Positions 53,993 through 64,000 of a DNA stretch of 64,000 nt are shown here, in pieces. The notes under the pieces are model-generated. The model saw only the letters and a list, made by a program, of their open reading frames with translations. It made no database searches and was not told the DNA's origin. The stretch's first letter is position 1, and every line of letters starts with the position of its first letter. The position numbers and the translations under genes were made by a program. Location of the stretch: NCBI GenBank assembly GCA_038146705.1, contig JAYQSB010000009.1:2374-66373 (forward strand). Reading direction: 5' to 3'. This DNA comes from Candidatus Poseidoniales archaeon. GTDB lineage: Archaea; Thermoplasmatota; Poseidoniia; Poseidoniales; Poseidoniaceae.

Positions 53993-54081
53993 ATCAAGGG
54001 TGCTCTGTGGTTCAAACATCTTAAAATACTGATGTCTCAGAAATTGTGAAGGGTTCAAAACGAAGATGCCGTACGCTCTGC

Positions 54082-55038
54082 ATGGACGTCGCTTCGTTGT
54101 ACAGGAATGCTGCCAGCGGTCTTCCATTCTCATTGGAGATTCTTCCCCCGAACAGAGGGCTTGGTCTTGAAAACATTCACGAGTTTTTCAACAGCCTTGA
54201 TGGATGGCAGCCTGCCTTTGTCAGTGTGACATACCACCAAGCACACAAAATAGACCGCATCAATGAACACGGCCAAACAGAGAGAATTTGGAATCGGAAA
54301 AAACCCGGGACGCTAGGCGTCTGTGCCATGCTCAAGTTTCAGTACGGCCTAGATGTTATCCCGCACGTTATTTGTGGTGGTTTTTCGAAGTTTGAATCCG
54401 AAGATTTCTTGGTTGATTTGGATTATCTTGGTTTCAACCATGTGTTGGCCCTTCGCGGCGACCCGAACAAGACAGAACCTCATTTCACTCCCCATCCGTA
54501 TGGTAACACCTACGCGAACGAGTTGGTCGAACAAATCATGGATATGAACGCAGGCAAATATCTGGAAGATGTGAGCGAAGCTCGAGCTACGAACTTTGAA
54601 ATTGGCGTAGGAGGGTATCCTGAAGTCCATGCGGAAGCCCGTGATTTGGAAGAAGAGGTCACCAACGTCAAGAGAAAAATTGACGCTGGAGCATCGTTTT
54701 TGATCACACAGATGTTCTTTGATAACGAATGCTTCTTTCGGTTTGAGAAATCATGTCAAAAGGTAGGCATCGATGTACCGCTCATTCCTGGATTGAAAGT
54801 CATCACCTCAAAACAACAACTCACGGTCTTGCCCGAAATTTTCGGAACGAGCCTACCTCAGAAACTCATTGACGATGTCAATGCCTGTGAAACCGATGAC
54901 GAAGTGATTCAGGTTGGGATTGCACATACCGTCAACCAAGCACGAGCCTTGCTCGATTATGGCGTAGCTGGTGTGCACTTCTTCACGATGAACAACAGCC
55001 GTGTGTTCAACCAAATTCTTCGAGAGTTCCAGGGGTGA
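54082..55038 (+). CDS. metF: Methylenetetrahydrofolate reductase, bacterial type
   Basis: SLEILPP, FVSVTY, PHVICGG, LALRGD, GYPEVH, ITQMFFD, HFFTMN. Confidence 0.93.
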
Positions 55039-55043
55039 ACACC

Positions 55044-58000
55044 ATGTCTCCAAAGGATGAACTGGAGAGGGTGGCTCAGGACCGAATGCTCATCATCGAT
55101 GGTGCCATGGGAACCATGATTCAGCAGCATCCTTTGAAGGAAGAAGACTTTCGTGACAAGTTGTTAAAGGACCATTCTATAGACCTTAAAGGCAACAACG
55201 AGATGCTCAACATCACTCAACCCCATCTCATTGAGGCCATCCATACGCAATACCTCCAGGCTGGAGCCGACATCATCGAAACCAACACATTTGGTGCCAC
55301 CAGCATTGCACAATCGGAATACGGTTTAAGCGACCGTGTTGTTGAGATGAACGAGCGAGCAGCGAAGATTGCGAAAGAAGCCGTGAGCAAACATCAGGAA
55401 AAAACCGGTAAGCGTTGTTGGGTGGCAGGAGCCATCGGCCCGACAAATGTCACGCTTTCTGCCTCTTCGGATGTGGATGACCCCTCTGCAAGAGCGGCGA
55501 ACTGGGATGAAGTTTACCAAGCCTACCTTGAACAACTTCTTGTCCTCATCGATAACGGCTGCGACATCATTCTCATTGAGACAATTTTTGACGTGCTCAA
55601 CGCAAAAGCCGCCATCAAAGCAACGCTTGATGCCTTTGAGATGAAACAAATTGACTTGCCCATCATGATCTCGGTAACGTTCATTCAAGAAAAAGGAGAC
55701 AGGACCGTATTTGGACAAAGCGTTGAAGCCTTTTGGGCCACCGTAAAACATGCACAACCATTCAGCATCGGCATCAATTGCGGATTGGGAGCATCTGGTT
55801 TACGCAGTAAGTTATCCACCCTCGCTAACATCTGTGACACTCGAACTCACATCTATCCAAACGCTGGATTACCCAACCCACTTTCTCCCTCAGGATTTGA
55901 TGAAACGCCGCACATTACAGCCTCCCACATCGCCTCATTGGTTCGAGATGGGTTGCTCAATCTCGTTGGTGGATGTTGTGGCACCACTCCAGATCACATC
56001 CAAGCCATTCACGATTCTGTTCAAGGATTGCGTCCCCGGGTACCAGGAAAACCAAGCGAGGTACCGACGTACGCTGGTTTGGACACCTGCACCATCCTTC
56101 CGGACTCCAATCTTATCATGGTTGGAGAGCGGACCAACGTTACGGGCTCGGCTCAATTCCGCAGGCTTGTAACCTCTTTAGATTTTGAAAACGCCGTGGA
56201 AGTAGCACGAGACCAAGTGCAAAACGGTGCCAACATCATCGATGTCAACATGGATGAGGGATTGATAGAAAGCGAAGAGGTCATGACCCGATTCCTCAAC
56301 ATCATTGCCACCGAGCCAGACATTGCTTCTGTCCCCATCATGATCGACTCCTCAAAATGGAGTGTGCTCGAAGCTGGCCTCAAATGCATCCAAGGCAAAC
56401 CCATTGTCAACTCCATTTCCCTCAAAGAAGGCGAAACGGTATTTCTCGAGCAAGCGAAGAAGATTCATCGCTACGGTGCAGCCGTGGTCGTGATGGGTTT
56501 TGATGAGAAGGGCCAAGCAGAAAGCGCGGAAAGAAAAGTAGAAATCGCACTTAGGGCTCAAAAACTCCTGGTTGAACGGGTTGGTTTTCACCCATCAGAC
56601 ATCATTCATGACCCAAATGTCCTCGCCGTAGCAACTGGTATGTCGGAGCATGATGACTTCGCAAAAAACTACATCGAGGCAACGAAGATGATCCGTGAAT
56701 CATGTCCACAATCCATGGTTAGCGGAGGTATCAGCAACCTCTCATTTTCGTTTCGAGGCAACGATACGGTTCGCCAAGCCATGCATGCCGTCTTCTTGCA
56801 CCACGCCATCGGAGCAGGTCTAACGATGGGCATCGTAAATCCTTCCCATCTAACCATCTATGAAGATATTGAAGATTCCTTACTAGAGATGGTTGAGGAT
56901 GTGATCCTCAACCGCCGCCCCGATGCAACAGAGCGTTTGGTGTTGATGGCCGACCGTTTTTCGAAACAAAAAAGCCTCCAGGAAGATGCTCAGGAGTGGA
57001 GAGAACAAGATGTAGAAAAACGGTTGGCTCATGCTTTGATTCACGGAATCACGGAATTTATCGAAAAGGATGTCGCTGAAGCCTACGACGATATTGGTGA
57101 TGCGTTGAGCATCATTGAAGGCCCTCTTATGGACGGCATGAATGTTGTAGGGGATTTGTTTGGTTCGGGCAAAATGTTTCTTCCACAAGTCGTCAAAAGC
57201 GCTCGAGTGATGAAGAAAGCTGTTGCATGGTTGGAACCCCACATGCATCATGCTGATACTGAGCAGAAAAAACGGGCAGAGGTCGTGCTTGCAACCGTCA
57301 AGGGAGATGTGCATGATATTGGAAAAAACATCGTGGGTATCGTGCTGCAATGCAACGATTACGCCGTCCATGACCTTGGCGTCATGGTACCGCTGTCCAC
57401 CATTTTGGATAAAGTAGAAGAGGTGCAGGCCGATGTACTCGGACTGTCTGGTCTCATCACACCCTCTCTTGATGAAATGATTGAAGTGGCCAAGGAAATG
57501 CAACGAAGAGGCATGACCATCCCGTTGCTCATCGGTGGCGCCACCACCTCGCGCCAGCACACGGCCGTCAGAATCAACCCTGCCTACGAAGCAGAGGTTG
57601 TGCACGTGAAGGACGCTTCGCTCATTTCGGGGGTGCTCAATCAATTGCTTGACGAGGAAAAGCGACTTGAATTCAAGAAAACACTGGACGATGAAAACGC
57701 ACGATTGACAGCCCTATTTGAGCGAAAAATCAACCAACCCCTCCTCACCTTGCAAAGAGCAAGACAACGAAAACCTGTCCTCGAGTTTAACGAACAGACG
57801 TGCGCTAGGCCCCCTTTCACCGGTGTGAGAGAATTTTCGCTCAGCCTTGCAGATGTCGAGCCATACATTGACTGGAATTTCTTTTTCACCGCTTGGAACA
57901 TGAAGGGGACCTATCCAGACATTCTCAACCACCCGGAAAAAGGTGAGGCGGCGAGCGATGTGTTTGAAAACGGCAAGAAAATGTTAGCAGAGGTCATGCA

Positions 58001-58688
58001 AAACCAGTTGTTGCACATCAAGGCCATCGCCGGTTTTTGGCCAGCCCATTCAGAAGGCGATGATATCGTTATCCAAGGGGAAGTAGAGCATCGGTTTGCC
58101 TTCTTGAGGCAACAACGGAGTGTTGGAGAACAGAACGTTTGTCTCGCCGACTTTGTAGCACCTCAAGATGAGATTCAAGATCATGTAGGGGGATTTGCAG
58201 TTGCTGTTCACGGGACTGAGGCTCTCGCACAGTCCTTTGAAGATGAGCAAGACGATTACAACGCCATCATGATCAAGGCTATTTCAGACCGCCTTGCTGA
58301 AGCAACTGCCGAAAAATTACACCAGGTCATCCGGTCAGAATGGGGCTTTCCTGACGGCGAAGACATGACGCATGAACGCTTGATGAAGGCCGATTACCGC
58401 TCAATTCGACCGGCATTTGGATACCCTGCTTGTCCCGATCACAGCGACAAACGCTTGCTTTTTGCTCTCTTAGATGCTGAAACTCACGGGTTCCATCTCA
58501 CTGAATCCTGTGCAACATCACCTGCATCAAGTGTTTCAGGGTTGTATTTTGGTCATCCTAAAGCCACCTATTTCGGCGTCAATCGAATCGACGAAGGTCA
58601 GGTTATGGATTTAGCACAACGTAAACAAGTACCACGAAGAGAAGTTGAATATTGGCTCGCCTCAATCATTGACTACGACCCGAACTGA
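55044..58688 (+). CDS. metH: Cobalamin-dependent methionine synthase (full-length, four modules)
   Basis: [65 protein letters not shown]. Confidence 0.97.
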
Positions 58689-58799: not shown

Positions 58800-60095
58800 T
58801 CAAACAGCTGGCAGGATACCAATTCGTGCAAGTCCAGCCCAAATTGGGTCGAGGAATGCAGGTAAGAATCTGTGTCGTAGGTACACAGCAGCAGCAAGTG
58901 AGATTTTCTGAACCTTGTTGAGTTTCACACGATTTGTGAACACATCGCCTTGTTGTTTCTCGATTTGTTTCAAAATCTTGTCGTAGAATGCGATCATGGC
59001 AGCCGGTGAATATCGTGAACGGCGTGGAAGAAGGGGTAAGAGTTGGCGAGCCTCTTCGAGATATGTTCGTGCTCGTTTTGCATAATGGTGGCAATATGGT
59101 TCCCAGTGTTTGTTGACAACAATCCGGCCATCCAATTCCTCTGCAGTCATTTTGTTGCGCTCAATTTCATCAAGTGGAAGGTAGATCCGGTCCCGTTGAA
59201 TGTCTTCTCCGACGTCTCGAAGAACATTTGTAAGTTGCATGAATATACCCCATGATTCAGCAAATTTCTTTGCTTGAGGGTCGTCATAGCCATAAATTTC
59301 GATGCACATGAGTCCTACGACAGATGCCACTCTGTAGCAGTAGAGGTAGAGTTCGTCAAATGTGCGGTATCGGTTGTGAAACAAGTCATCCTCCATTCCT
59401 GTGATGAGGTCGTCAAAATGTTGTTTTGAAATATTGAATCTTGTGACCGTGTCTTTGAGTGCTAAGAATACAGGGTCTGTAGAATAGACATCTGTGTAGC
59501 AAGTGGACAACTTCTTTCTAAAGAAAAAGAGTTGACTGATCTTCTTTTCATAAGCCTCTGGATCGATGATGGTGGACAAATCTTGAAGATTCTCGAGTTT
59601 TTCTCTATATTCCACTGCCTCCGGGTCAAGCGCACCTCGACTTCCAGGAAATCGGTCACTCCAGTCGCCATCAGCGATGTCATCAGCTCGTCGGCAAAAT
59701 GCGTAGATGGCACACATTGCAAAGCGTTGTTCATCTGGAAGATACTTGAAGGAGTGGTAGAAATTACCAGCTTCTCTCATGGTTAATTCTTCACAATACT
59801 TGTAAGCAAGTTTGTACAATTCAGCAGGTGGATTTTCGGACCAAATCGGTGCATCGAGATGTGCGAACGGGTCGACCAACTCATTTTTCTCGCCGACAAT
59901 ACCAATGTATTGTGCACCTTCTCGAATGGCTTCCATAGCAGTTACGCTTACAGCCTTCACAGCGTCTTTTGCAAGAGTTACACCAGCACGGAATCTGGAA
60001 AGTGTGGTCGGTCGTGAGGGCTCAGTGTTCATCTCTGAACGAGCGTTTCCCTTGAGTGGGAAGAGCAAGTCCAAAGGTTTCCTGCGCTCTAACAT
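58800..60095 (-). CDS. hpnD: Presqualene diphosphate synthase HpnD-like (squalene/phytoene synthase family)
   Basis: GNFYHSFKYLP, IYAFCRRADDIAD, YCYRVASVVG, QLTNVLRDVGED, GRIYLP-like DRIYLP; start may be 60032. Confidence 0.8.
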   Translation of the reverse strand: MLERRKPLDLLFPLKGNARSEMNTEPSRPTTLSRFRAGVTLAKDAVKAVSVTAMEAIREGAQYIGIVGEKNELVDPFAHLDAPIWSENPPAELYKLAYKYCEELTMREAGNFYHSFKYLPDEQRFAMCAIYAFCRRADDIADGDWSDRFPGSRGALDPEAVEYREKLENLQDLSTIIDPEAYEKKISQLFFFRKKLSTCYTDVYSTDPVFLALKDTVTRFNISKQHFDDLITGMEDDLFHNRYRTFDELYLYCYRVASVVGLMCIEIYGYDDPQAKKFAESWGIFMQLTNVLRDVGEDIQRDRIYLPLDEIERNKMTAEELDGRIVVNKHWEPYCHHYAKRARTYLEEARQLLPLLPRRSRYSPAAMIAFYDKILKQIEKQQGDVFTNRVKLNKVQKISLAAAVYLRHRFLPAFLDPIWAGLARIGILPAV

Positions 60096-60197
60096 CCCAA
60101 TCGTTTTGCCCTATGCGTTTTCCTTTTTGATTCCTTTCTTTTTACGGGCTAGAATTCTCCACCCGAATTACGATAAAATTTCAGACCATATGAATGC

Positions 60198-61151
60198 TTA
60201 TTTTTTCTTAGAAATTTTCCGCCATTTCCGTTTCGCATAGAAGAGCAGTCTTGCTTGTTTGAATTTACTTACCTTAGGCCGTTTGACCCAAGTATTGTAC
60301 CTTTGTTTTCGAATTGATTTGAGTATTTCCTCACCTCCAAGAGTGAACATCTCGAGGTCGACTGCAAGGTGAGGGTCGACTTTGTCCCACAATTTCTTAC
60401 CCGCATCAAACAATGTTTGGGCTCGGTCAACTTCTTCTTGGAGTATCTTTACCCAACGTTCATCGTAGACCATGTTGTTGTAATCTTCAATGGTGTAGTT
60501 GTGTTTCTCCATTGTTTCCAGCGGCAAATATCTTCTGTCTTGAGCTAGGTCTCGTCGAATATCTTGCCAGTGGTTAGCAAGTTGTAATGCAGTACATGTT
60601 GAGTCGGCGAGGCCTCGTAATTCATCGCTGTCATGGCCATACACATAGAGGAAAAGATGACCAACTGGATCTGCGGAGTGTTCACAATACTCTCTTAATT
60701 CATCCCAAGACGAATATTGTATCCTCTCTTGGTCCCACATGAATGCGGTAATGAGTTTTTCATATGGCTTGATGGGGATGTTGAATGTTTTCGACGTATG
60801 TGCTAAAGCGATTAAAATTGGATGCCGTGGCTTGCCATTCCAGTTGTCTTCGTGAGCTTTTCTCAAATCTTCAAGCCATGCTTGTAAGAGCAACATTCTC
60901 TCATTTGGTGGAAATGGTGCATCATCGCCTAAATCGTCTCCGTACCTGCAAAAAGCGTACACATTCTGAATATGGTTTCGAACTTCTGGTGGAGTAAAGT
61001 GATTGGTAATGACAAAATTCTCATAATGTGCCTTGGCTATTTTTTCACAATAAGCCTGTGCTTCTTCGATGCTTTGATGTGTATCCCATCCAGCTAACGT
61101 CACACCATGTTGATCGATAGTATGTTGGCCCCAATCAAATTTCTCAGCCAT
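60198..61151 (-). CDS. hpnC: Hydroxysqualene synthase HpnC-like
   Basis: HYENF, VYAFCRYGDDLGD, YCEHSADPVG, CTALQLANHWQDI; start set to MAEKF behind GGAGG. Confidence 0.85.
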   Translation of the reverse strand: MAEKFDWGQHTIDQHGVTLAGWDTHQSIEEAQAYCEKIAKAHYENFVITNHFTPPEVRNHIQNVYAFCRYGDDLGDDAPFPPNERMLLLQAWLEDLRKAHEDNWNGKPRHPILIALAHTSKTFNIPIKPYEKLITAFMWDQERIQYSSWDELREYCEHSADPVGHLFLYVYGHDSDELRGLADSTCTALQLANHWQDIRRDLAQDRRYLPLETMEKHNYTIEDYNNMVYDERWVKILQEEVDRAQTLFDAGKKLWDKVDPHLAVDLEMFTLGGEEILKSIRKQRYNTWVKRPKVSKFKQARLLFYAKRKWRKISKKK

Positions 61152-62613
61152 GCGTGAACCTCCATTCAGCGATGGTGTCATCTTTTCTTTCCGGGGGACC
61201 TGGCCATGCACTCCAATTTGAATCAGGGTTCCATTGTTGACCAAGGATTTGTGCTGCTGCTATACATCCTGAACGTACTGCTCCTTCCATTGTACTTGGC
61301 CACTTGGTCGCAGTATAGCAGCCAGCAAGAAGAACTGATGGATGAATATAGTCTGGCTTTGGACGAAGTCTCGCAGTTCCCGGTCGAGGTGCGAATGTTG
61401 CTTTGGGCATTCGTACAATGAGGGTCTCAACAGGTAGGTTGTCCTTTGTATCGGGAAACATTCGGCCTAAGACTCGCTCTAATTCGACCAACATATCTTC
61501 ATCGTTTAGATTCAAAAAATCGTCAGCATGACTCACTGGAACGGAAATCCATTGAATACCAGGTGCTATTTGTTCTTGCAATTCATGATTTCTATTGAAC
61601 ACCATTTGAATCAATGGCTCATCAATAATCGCAGAAAATGCGAAGGTTTTCGGTACCTTTTCTCCTCTATAGAACGCATGTATACCCATCAGTGCAGTGT
61701 ATTCAATTTCTTCAAATGCCTCCAACTTTTCCTTCGAGGTTGTTAGAATTGATCCTGAAGAACCAAGTAATTTCTTCGTGATATGAGGGGGGGTTGCCAA
61801 AACAACTTTTTGCCCATGGTATGTTTTTCGATTTGTACTCACTGTACATTCACCTTTCGTATCGACCTCAACACTGTTCACCGAAGATGACAATTCGACG
61901 TTCACTCCGGCATCTTGAAGAGTTTCAAGAATTTCAGATTGAAAAATATGAGAAAGATGATGTTGAAAACAAGCAACATCGAATGCATCACTTGAACCGA
62001 AAATTCCAGTTTTGTAAAGCATACAGCCCTGTGCAGCACTTGCTTCTTTCACCTCAATGTTGAGGGCTGCGAGGATGAAAAAACCCCAAAACCGTTCAAT
62101 GGCCTCAAATGTTTGTCCATGTTCGATGAGCCAGTCGTAAAATGAGATGTTATCAAGTGACCAAATTTCATCCTCAGTCATTTTGTCTAATTTCTTGATG
62201 ATTTTCCTCATTGCTAATTTATCTTTTAACCCGAGAAACGGGAATTTGAGCATCGATCTCGCCATGTGATTCGGTGGATTTAATTTGCCAGATTTCAATG
62301 AAGCAAATTTTTGTGATTTAGGGTCAAAAAAAGGAAGAACCGTTTTCTTTTGAATTTTCATCGCCCTATGAGCATTACATCTGAATAAAAATTGAAAAAA
62401 GCGTGAGTATATCCGAAAGGCTGCATGCTGGCAGTTGTCCATTTGGAAATGTAGTCGAGGATGCTCCACACTCGCAACTCTCCCGCCGAGAAAACGTCGT
62501 GCTTCGATAAGGACAACCGATTTGCCTGCATCAGCTAGTGCCAAGGCACATGAGACCCCAGCCAGTCCCCCACCAACGACAATGGCATCATCTGTTTCCA
62601 AGAATCCCACCAT
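61144..62613 (-). CDS. hpnE: Hydroxysqualene dehydroxylase HpnE-like FAD oxidoreductase
   Basis: VVGGGLAGVSCA, EARRFLGGR..S, DNCQH, LAGCYT...WPSTMEGAVRSG; overlaps the hpnC start by 8 nt. Confidence 0.85.
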   Translation of the reverse strand: MVGFLETDDAIVVGGGLAGVSCALALADAGKSVVLIEARRFLGGRVASVEHPRLHFQMDNCQHAAFRIYSRFFQFLFRCNAHRAMKIQKKTVLPFFDPKSQKFASLKSGKLNPPNHMARSMLKFPFLGLKDKLAMRKIIKKLDKMTEDEIWSLDNISFYDWLIEHGQTFEAIERFWGFFILAALNIEVKEASAAQGCMLYKTGIFGSSDAFDVACFQHHLSHIFQSEILETLQDAGVNVELSSSVNSVEVDTKGECTVSTNRKTYHGQKVVLATPPHITKKLLGSSGSILTTSKEKLEAFEEIEYTALMGIHAFYRGEKVPKTFAFSAIIDEPLIQMVFNRNHELQEQIAPGIQWISVPVSHADDFLNLNDEDMLVELERVLGRMFPDTKDNLPVETLIVRMPKATFAPRPGTARLRPKPDYIHPSVLLAGCYTATKWPSTMEGAVRSGCIAAAQILGQQWNPDSNWSAWPGPPERKDDTIAEWRFTHG

Positions 62614-62739
62614 AACGAGCGAAGAAGAAGGTTTACAAATAGTCATGCAGAGAGACCCTAATGTTGATGCTCTTTCAGGCCTAAATATCACAATGCTTTA
62701 GTCTAAGGAGCAGAACCACTAAACTGGGGAGGGCAAAAG

Positions 62740-64000
62740 ATGAATTGCGGGTCATGCAACGAAATGATTCCAGATGATAGTATGTTTTGCCCAGAATGCG
62801 GGGCCCGCCAAGACACATCAATTGCAGGCTCATTCCAACAACCAATGCCACAGCGTGATTTCGAACCTGTGACCGGTATGAATGCTCGAATGCAACAAGA
62901 GACAAACATGGGGGCGTTCCCAAATATGCAGCCTGAGCAATTCCAAAATATGGCTCAAAACATTCAACAAAATCCAAATCTCCCTCCAAATATGTACCAA
63001 CAAAATCAGATGGGATTCCCAAATCAAAATATTCCAATGGGAAACCAACCGATGCCCAATCAGAATATGCCCATGGGAAACCAACCGATGCCCAATCAGA
63101 ATATGCCGATGGGACGACCTCAAAATGTCGTACCTATGAACAATCAAATGGTCAATGTTCCTTCGAACCAGCCATCTGACATGCCAAAAGCAACTCGGGG
63201 CCCGAGTCTTTCGAGTGGAGCAATTCCAAATGCTCATCGCACACAATTCGACCCTGCTCATTCAGGGGGGACGATGATTGCCCACAACCCAGAAGTGTCC
63301 CAAACAGACGCCATGGTTAATCGACTGGCGGAAGCAGAGCGAGCGGTCAAAGATGAGCGAAGATCACAATGGTTAAACATGAACCAAAACGCAGCATCGG
63401 ATGTTCTTTCTAATCTCGGTGGAGATGTCCCTTCACATCTCAAGAGCAAGGGGGCTTCTGAGGTGAATGCTGCACAAATTCTATCCGGTTCAAACGCCGA
63501 TGATACTCCAAATGATGCACTGTTGAGAAGGATTGCAGAAGTCGCATCTAGGCGAGTTGCCCGAAAGCGTGGCGTTGCAGTTGAGTCGCCACAAGTGAAA
63601 CTCGTCGACGATATCATGACAGTGAATTTAACGTATGTTGATGATGGAAGAGTGCTTGATACTCCTGAAGATTTATCACAGGCATTCGAACAAGCCATCC
63701 AAACTGAAATTGCATTGAAAGGTTACGACTTTTCTGCAGAAATCCAACTCTTTAGAAACAAAGATGGTACGACTGAAAAAATCGGAGAAGAAGAATCTGA
63801 AGAGGATATGTTTGCTTGTGAAATGTGCGACGGCCTTGTCAAAGAAACTGACCCTGTTTGTCCTCACTGTGGTGCAATGTTTGAGGAAGAAGAGGATGAT
63901 GAACTATCATCTGAGTCAAGCCCGCAGCGTAGCGGCGGCCCCCCAGGCCCCAGTCGTAGTGGTGGCCCTCCGGGTCCTAAGAAAGGCGGCCCTCCAGGCC
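62740..64000 (+). CDS. Zinc-ribbon protein with Q/N/P/M-rich low-complexity region and GGPPGP repeats (partial, runs off the window end)
   Basis: Absent from the ORF track (no stop in window). Manual translation: MNCGSC...FCPECG, QQNQMGFPNQNIPMGNQPM..., ACEMC...VCPHCG, SGGPPGP repeats; GGAGGG SD upstream. Confidence 0.8.
   Translation, partial: MNCGSCNEMIPDDSMFCPECGARQDTSIAGSFQQPMPQRDFEPVTGMNARMQQETNMGAFPNMQPEQFQNMAQNIQQNPNLPPNMYQQNQMGFPNQNIPMGNQPMPNQNMPMGNQPMPNQNMPMGRPQNVVPMNNQMVNVPSNQPSDMPKATRGPSLSSGAIPNAHRTQFDPAHSGGTMIAHNPEVSQTDAMVNRLAEAERAVKDERRSQWLNMNQNAASDVLSNLGGDVPSHLKSKGASEVNAAQILSGSNADDTPNDALLRRIAEVASRRVARKRGVAVESPQVKLVDDIMTVNLTYVDDGRVLDTPEDLSQAFEQAIQTEIALKGYDFSAEIQLFRNKDGTTEKIGEEESEEDMFACEMCDGLVKETDPVCPHCGAMFEEEEDDELSSESSPQRSGGPPGPSRSGGPPGPKKGGPPG
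63019..63114 (+). repeat. 36-bp coding tandem repeat (PNQNMPMGNQPM, about 2.7 copies)
   Basis: Near-identical units at 63019, 63055 and a partial unit at 63091. Confidence 0.9.
63931..64000 (+). repeat. Coding GGPPGP tandem repeats
   Basis: SGGPPGPSRSGGPPGPKKGGPPG; synonymously diverged, truncated by the window edge. Confidence 0.85.

Follow-up and report, generated by a model that had tools for sequence, protein, structure and literature searches.

The synthesis of squalene in an archaeon is considered here from a 64,000-nucleotide stretch of DNA (the window) of contig JAYQSB010000009.1, belonging to Candidatus Poseidoniales archaeon (assembly GCA_038146705.1), of the family Poseidoniaceae in Marine Group II. 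On its minus strand, the genes hpnE, hpnC and hpnD form an operon-like unit that is probably functional and would make squalene from farnesyl diphosphate (FPP) by the bacterial three-step route. The identities of the three genes are shown by profile scores, phylogeny and motifs, and the chemistry attributed to their products is carried over from the bacterial enzymes. The HpnCDE route in this lineage is real, correctly read and already known from published work. What is added here are counts across the order, with HpnD, HpnC and a squalene synthase (Sqs)-type gene in 150, 18 and 129 of 151 genomes, respectively, as well as the finding that a single slot holds either sqs or hpnE-hpnC, never both.

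The listing of open reading frames (ORFs) in the window places the three genes in one orientation in the order hpnE-hpnC-hpnD, bearing out an earlier reading of this DNA (the preliminary description), which had reported a co-oriented minus-strand trio with an 8-nt overlap between hpnE and hpnC. The gene hpnE (61144-62646, minus strand), predicted to encode a flavin adenine dinucleotide (FAD)-dependent hydroxysqualene dehydroxylase of 500 amino acids, lies within a full ORF spanning 61144-62691. The gene hpnC (60198-61151, minus strand), a predicted hydroxysqualene synthase of 317 amino acids, begins with MAEKF at 61151 inside an ORF spanning 60198-61244. The hpnE stop at 61144 and the hpnC start at 61151 thus overlap by 8 nt, implying co-translation. 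An A/T-rich spacer of 102 nt (60096-60197), read directly, separates hpnC from hpnD (58800-60095, minus strand), which is linked to the other two genes on the same strand and encodes a putative presqualene-diphosphate synthase of 431 amino acids in an enlarged archaeal form. Public records contain exactly the 317-residue HpnC product and exactly the 500-residue HpnE product, the latter starting from the ATG at 62646. The start at 62613 given in the preliminary description, yielding 489 amino acids, is chosen in some close homologues and is best regarded as an alternative to the public call.

Against the equivalog model TIGR03467, HpnE scores 319.3 bits (E = 5e-95), exceeding the NCBIfam cut-off of 283.05, and HpnC reaches 271.8 bits (E = 6e-81) against TIGR03464, whose cut-off is 250.45. 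HpnE also matches Pfam Amino_oxidase, retains an intact N-terminal GGGLAG FAD-binding motif, and carries DNCQH and TMEGAVRSG, while both window synthases match Pfam SQS_PSY. HpnC carries HYENF and QLANHWQD, and its top match in the PDB is 4hd1, annotated as "Squalene synthase HpnC" (E = 3.6e-64). HYENF and ANHWQD are common to the window HpnC, 4hd1 and other Poseidoniales HpnC proteins, whereas the HpnC proteins of Sinorhizobium fredii and Streptomyces fungicidicus keep only ENF of the first motif and show a looser second motif (CNHLQD and VEHLQD). The HpnC-specific form of this second motif, ANHxQD, takes the place of NILRD. The signatures by which the preliminary description had recognized HpnC and HpnE were therefore seen again, now accompanied by scores above both equivalog cut-offs. 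Together with the value obtained for HpnD (1e-70), the family-model E-values of the three proteins rule out a chance match.

The 431-residue protein is a more divergent case. Its best NCBIfam family is HpnD (TIGR03465), matched in two stretches at 237.9 bits, below the trusted cut-off of 278.6. CrtB follows with 193.8 bits, where the cut-off is 550. FYHSF, DDIAD and NVLRDVGED are all present, as the preliminary description had stated in assigning HpnD/CrtB signatures to this second synthase, and HpnD is the better of the two families, though under its cut-off. Both Asp-rich Mg-binding motifs (DDIAD and DVGED) are intact, and every column that is invariant in a nine-sequence alignment of the family is preserved. 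In addition, the protein possesses an N-terminal extension of about 100 amino acids, an insertion of about 40-58 amino acids following DDIAD and, at the C terminus, a hydrophobic tail. The extension and the insertion, the latter splitting the match in two, account for the missed cut-off, and the protein is therefore treated as a divergent HpnD-type enzyme rather than a strict equivalog. These additions are conserved across the order, identity being 54-100% in 148 of the 151 genomes and 40-42% in two genomes of one family (f2). The residue equivalent to F26 of CrtM is Phe in the window HpnD and a bulky Met or Ile in its bacterial counterparts, but three CrtB proteins have Ser or Thr there. F26 gates substrate size in CrtM, and its F26A/S/L variants accept geranylgeranyl diphosphate (GGPP) (PMC13304436). 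The Phe at this position suggests that C15 substrates are favoured.

For phylogenetic placement, PGAP-annotated genes from plasmid records served as references. They comprised the hpnC-hpnD-hpnE-shc genes of S. fredii (pSF25509a) and S. fungicidicus (p1), hpnD of Mycetohabitans, crtB and crtI of Pantoea ananatis and Streptomyces anulatus, crtB of Thermus, and the crtM-like, crtN and crtP-like genes of a Staphylococcus xylosus plasmid, with squalene synthase (SQS) also included in the synthase tree. In the maximum-likelihood synthase tree, HpnC falls inside the HpnC clade (100/99) with 4hd1 and the HpnC proteins of S. fredii and S. fungicidicus. The window HpnD groups with other Poseidoniales HpnD proteins beside proteobacterial HpnD (90/79), a moderately supported position that depends on few references and leaves the Streptomyces HpnD unplaced. 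HpnC and HpnD together are set apart from CrtB/CrtM (83/89). In the flavoprotein tree, HpnE joins the annotated HpnE of Sinorhizobium and Streptomyces, split from CrtI/CrtN/CrtP at 100/100. The comparison by hidden Markov models and phylogeny proposed in the preliminary description thus puts HpnC and HpnE in their annotated clades. Neither synthase lies within CrtB nor the flavoprotein within CrtI, so that the placement named there as incompatible with a squalene pathway did not occur.

By analogy with the bacterial enzymes, HpnD would condense two FPP molecules into presqualene diphosphate, HpnC would convert this into hydroxysqualene, and the flavoprotein HpnE would reduce hydroxysqualene to squalene. 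The preliminary description had found no squalene-hopene cyclase in the window, and this absence extends to the whole genome (2.04 Mb, 94.8% complete, 0.52% contamination), in which no cyclase was found with TIGR01507 or by tblastn with the S. fredii enzyme. With no cyclase found, squalene would not serve here as a hopanoid or sterol precursor. It may be a neutral membrane lipid, or it may be a precursor of another kind, the substrate of a CrtN-like desaturase whose gene lies at a different locus.

Across the Poseidoniales, 151 species genomes were surveyed for these genes. The enlarged HpnD is nearly universal (150/151), occurring even in genomes without hpnC and hpnE. HpnC is confined to 18 genomes in nine of the 22 genera, always with HpnE, and within the genus of the present archaeon it occurs, apart from this genome, only in two close relatives with 94% identity in HpnD. 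HpnE exceeds its cut-off in 21 genomes, including all 18 with HpnC, and about 30 genomes score above 240 bits. The Sqs-type gene, detected with a profile built from the divergent SQS_PSY gene adjoining hpnD in relatives, is present in 129 genomes and adjoins hpnD in every case where the listed coordinates put the two on a single contig. Its best PDB matches are eukaryote-type squalene synthases, and it groups with SQS at 97/93 in the synthase tree. Weak TIGR01559 matches in the order (73-88 bits) were considered as HpnC orthologues and rejected, since NCBIfam, PDB and the tree all lead to this divergent Sqs-type gene. No genome contains both HpnC and the Sqs-type gene, and 147 of the 151 contain exactly one of them. 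The complete three-gene state is accordingly that of a minority, approximately 12% of Poseidoniales species.

Inspection of the loci themselves locates this alternation. The slot equivalent to window positions 60198-62646 was read in four relatives (G014, G003, G027 and G091). In G003 and the congener G014, the neighbours of hpnE-hpnC in the window, namely the Zn-ribbon gene and hpnD, enclose the Sqs-type gene. The order E-C-D was seen directly in the loci of two other genomes, from families f2 and f3, and the HpnE, HpnC and HpnD match coordinates are adjacent in all 18 genomes with HpnC. The hpnE-hpnC pair and the Sqs-type gene are thus mutually exclusive alternatives at one locus. As to the donor lineage, the matches listed in a search of genome contigs with an HpnE alignment were all Streptomyces loci, about 32% identical, from which no donor is inferred.

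The Zn-ribbon gene (62740-63999, plus strand) is divergent to hpnE and stands outside the pathway. Its product carries CxxC…CxxC at both ends and an extended region of Q/N/P/M-rich repeats (copies of NQPMPNQNMPMG), and it matched no Pfam family. Orthologues with 38-58% identity flank the slot in four of six Poseidoniales loci examined (G014, G003, G004 and G015), and the extracted portions of G027 and G091 showed none. On the opposite side, window positions 54046-58688 encode methylenetetrahydrofolate reductase and a 1217-residue cobalamin-dependent methionine synthase, convergent to hpnD. The genes beyond hpnD differ in G014, indicating that a rearrangement on one side of the locus took place within the genus.

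The genome as a whole contains just three SQS_PSY genes and two polyprenyl synthase homologues, and no other hpn genes occur near the locus or anywhere else. None of the three SQS_PSY genes reaches E <= 1e-40 with the Poseidoniales Sqs-type profile, and TIGR01559 scores are 31.9 and 19.2 bits, so Sqs was not found. The third SQS_PSY gene belongs to a second isoprenoid locus on another contig (C1:121771-125738), comprising an HpnD-like paralogue, a CrtN-like gene and a UbiB-like kinase. The paralogue, 337 amino acids in length, scores 178.6 bits with the HpnD model, under the cut-off, has a post-DDIAD insertion in common with the window HpnD, and likewise carries Phe at the CrtM F26 position. 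The neighbouring CrtI-family gene is closest to CrtN. At about 123130-123200 (minus strand) it contains an imperfect 34-nt tandem duplication (CCAGAAGATTGGGGAGACCATTGCTAC twice) that shifts the frame, so that the C-terminal 70 or so amino acids, with the GGGTHPGSG FAD motif among them, are read in a different one. The duplication is either a metagenome-assembly artefact, in which two strain variants were concatenated, or a real inactivation. The arrangement of the second locus agrees with the published context of hpnD next to crtN in Poseidoniia.

The genome also encodes a rhodopsin (C53:1530-2225), and a carotenoid interpretation was considered at both loci. The lycopene cyclase CrtY was not found in the genome, and TIGR03753 detected Blh neither here nor in any of the eight genomes of the genus searched, with matches in 6 of 61 from the family as a whole. 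A rhodopsin gene in this setting is the known puzzle of where Marine Group II (MGII) archaea obtain their retinal (Tully 2019, PMC6336850). These Blh results rest on TIGR03753, PF15461 having matched no control genome and being uninformative. Since crtY and blh were not found in the genome, the idea that the second locus serves retinal or beta-carotene synthesis was rejected. For the window genes, the corresponding proposal holds that they are crtB or crtM with a crtI-type desaturase, serving pigment formation or the supply of retinal to the rhodopsin, and the public label "phytoene synthase" on HpnD homologues would fit it. CrtB models, however, give the window synthases only 104-194 bits against cut-offs of 480-550, and none of the three proteins is placed with CrtB, CrtM or CrtI in the trees. 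Combined with the missing lycopene cyclase and Blh, this renders a carotenoid function very improbable. Less probable still is bacterial contamination of the archaeal metagenome-assembled genome (MAG), an idea prompted by the bacterial type of the pathway and its acquisition by lateral transfer (PMC7306690). The contig extends over 66 kb in a genome of low contamination, and the best 120 homologues of HpnD (430-470 amino acids, 68-94% identity) are Poseidoniales MAGs, those with names being Poseidonia, Poseidoniaceae or MGII. Contamination is rejected because synteny, in the form of the slot and its Zn-ribbon flank in the four loci from three families, is conserved across the order.

The remaining alternatives accept the genes as hpnE, hpnC and hpnD and concern what they do. 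Archaeal lipid synthesis proceeds through GGPP, the dominant archaeal prenyl diphosphate, and the same three enzymes might therefore use GGPP to form the C40 analogue of squalene (lycopersene, via prephytoene diphosphate), a possibility to which the extension and insertion of the archaeal HpnD lend some colour. It is nevertheless improbable, as HpnD shares the Phe of C30 enzymes at the F26-equivalent position, HpnC and HpnE reach equivalog level on models built from C30 enzymes, and the two polyprenyl synthase homologues make an FPP source plausible. It is similarly improbable that HpnD mainly supplies other enzymes with presqualene diphosphate or a dehydrosqualene-type product, hpnC and hpnE being a dispensable and decaying accessory. 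The excess of HpnD genomes over HpnC genomes and the HpnD paralogue beside the CrtN-like gene are in keeping with such a role. Against it, the window copies of hpnC and hpnE are intact and translationally coupled, with scores above their equivalog cut-offs, and HpnC always accompanies HpnE and never the Sqs-type gene, a pattern that argues for a working alternative module and not for decay.

Several points nonetheless weigh against squalene formation by the bacterial route. The score of HpnD lies under the trusted cut-off, and the protein carries large lineage-specific additions that may affect its function. The persistence of HpnD in genomes lacking hpnC and hpnE indicates that its role may exceed the feeding of HpnC, and the large archaeal GGPP pool leaves room for C40 products. 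The chemistry proposed for archaeal HpnCDE is carried over from bacteria, and MGII archaea are uncultured.

A broader proposal, which is speculative and rather unlikely, would make HpnD the obligate first enzyme of every Poseidoniales squalene route, serving two interchangeable second modules in the same slot. One module would be HpnC plus HpnE, as in this genome, and the other a Sqs-type enzyme performing the second half-reaction only, with the extension and insertion of HpnD existing for handing presqualene diphosphate to either. About 11 genomes contain hpnE, the Sqs-type gene and hpnD together, and these might represent intermediates of the exchange. If true, this would constitute a third, split squalene route in archaea that rank among the most abundant in the plankton. 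As for the three-step route preferred here, archaeal squalene has long been associated with haloarchaeal Sqs, and the significance of the Poseidoniia route has already been drawn (PMC7306690, PMC9907078).

Public annotation reflects these relationships unevenly. The preliminary description had expected the cluster to be mislabelled as crtB/crtI, and this is correct for HpnD, whose homologues are called "phytoene synthase". It does not apply to the relatives of HpnC and HpnE, which IMG, in the same 90%-identity clusters, names "squalene synthase HpnC" and "squalene-associated FAD-dependent desaturase". In the literature, Santana-Molina et al. (2020, PMC7306690) reported that HpnCDE within archaea is restricted to Poseidoniia (MGII), explained this by lateral transfer, and found a triterpene cyclase in no archaeon. 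The same work summarizes the bacterial three-step HpnCDE route of Pan et al. (2015). Subsequently, Santana-Molina et al. (2022, PMC9907078) described Poseidoniia as having HpnCDE or Sqs, plus CrtN, with hpnC and hpnE usually lost and hpnD and sqs retained. They also noted hpnD in a crtN genomic context and a "squalene route" to C30 polyenes via CrtN. Between them, the two papers already cover the replacement of hpnC/hpnE by sqs.

Compared with these known systems, the locus in the window has the same genes in the same lineage as the Poseidoniia complement of Santana-Molina et al. (PMC7306690, PMC9907078), with no essential difference. It resembles bacterial HpnCDE systems, such as those of Zymomonas and Rhodopseudomonas, in that the same three families are clustered and co-oriented, with conserved catalytic motifs. 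The gene order differs, being E-C-D in the archaeon and C-D-E in the clusters of S. fredii and S. fungicidicus, the two bacteria compared, and the archaeal genome, that of a host with ether lipids, encodes an enlarged HpnD and lacks shc and other hpn genes. The squalene-hopene cyclase by which a hopanoid (hpn) cluster is recognized is likewise missing, setting the locus apart from that class. With the CrtM/CrtN route of Staphylococcus and the CrtB/CrtI route of Pantoea, it shares SQS_PSY synthases and flavoproteins of the amine-oxidase fold, but the window proteins lie outside the CrtB, CrtM and CrtI/N/P groups and far below the corresponding model cut-offs, their nearest counterparts being the HpnC, HpnD and HpnE families.

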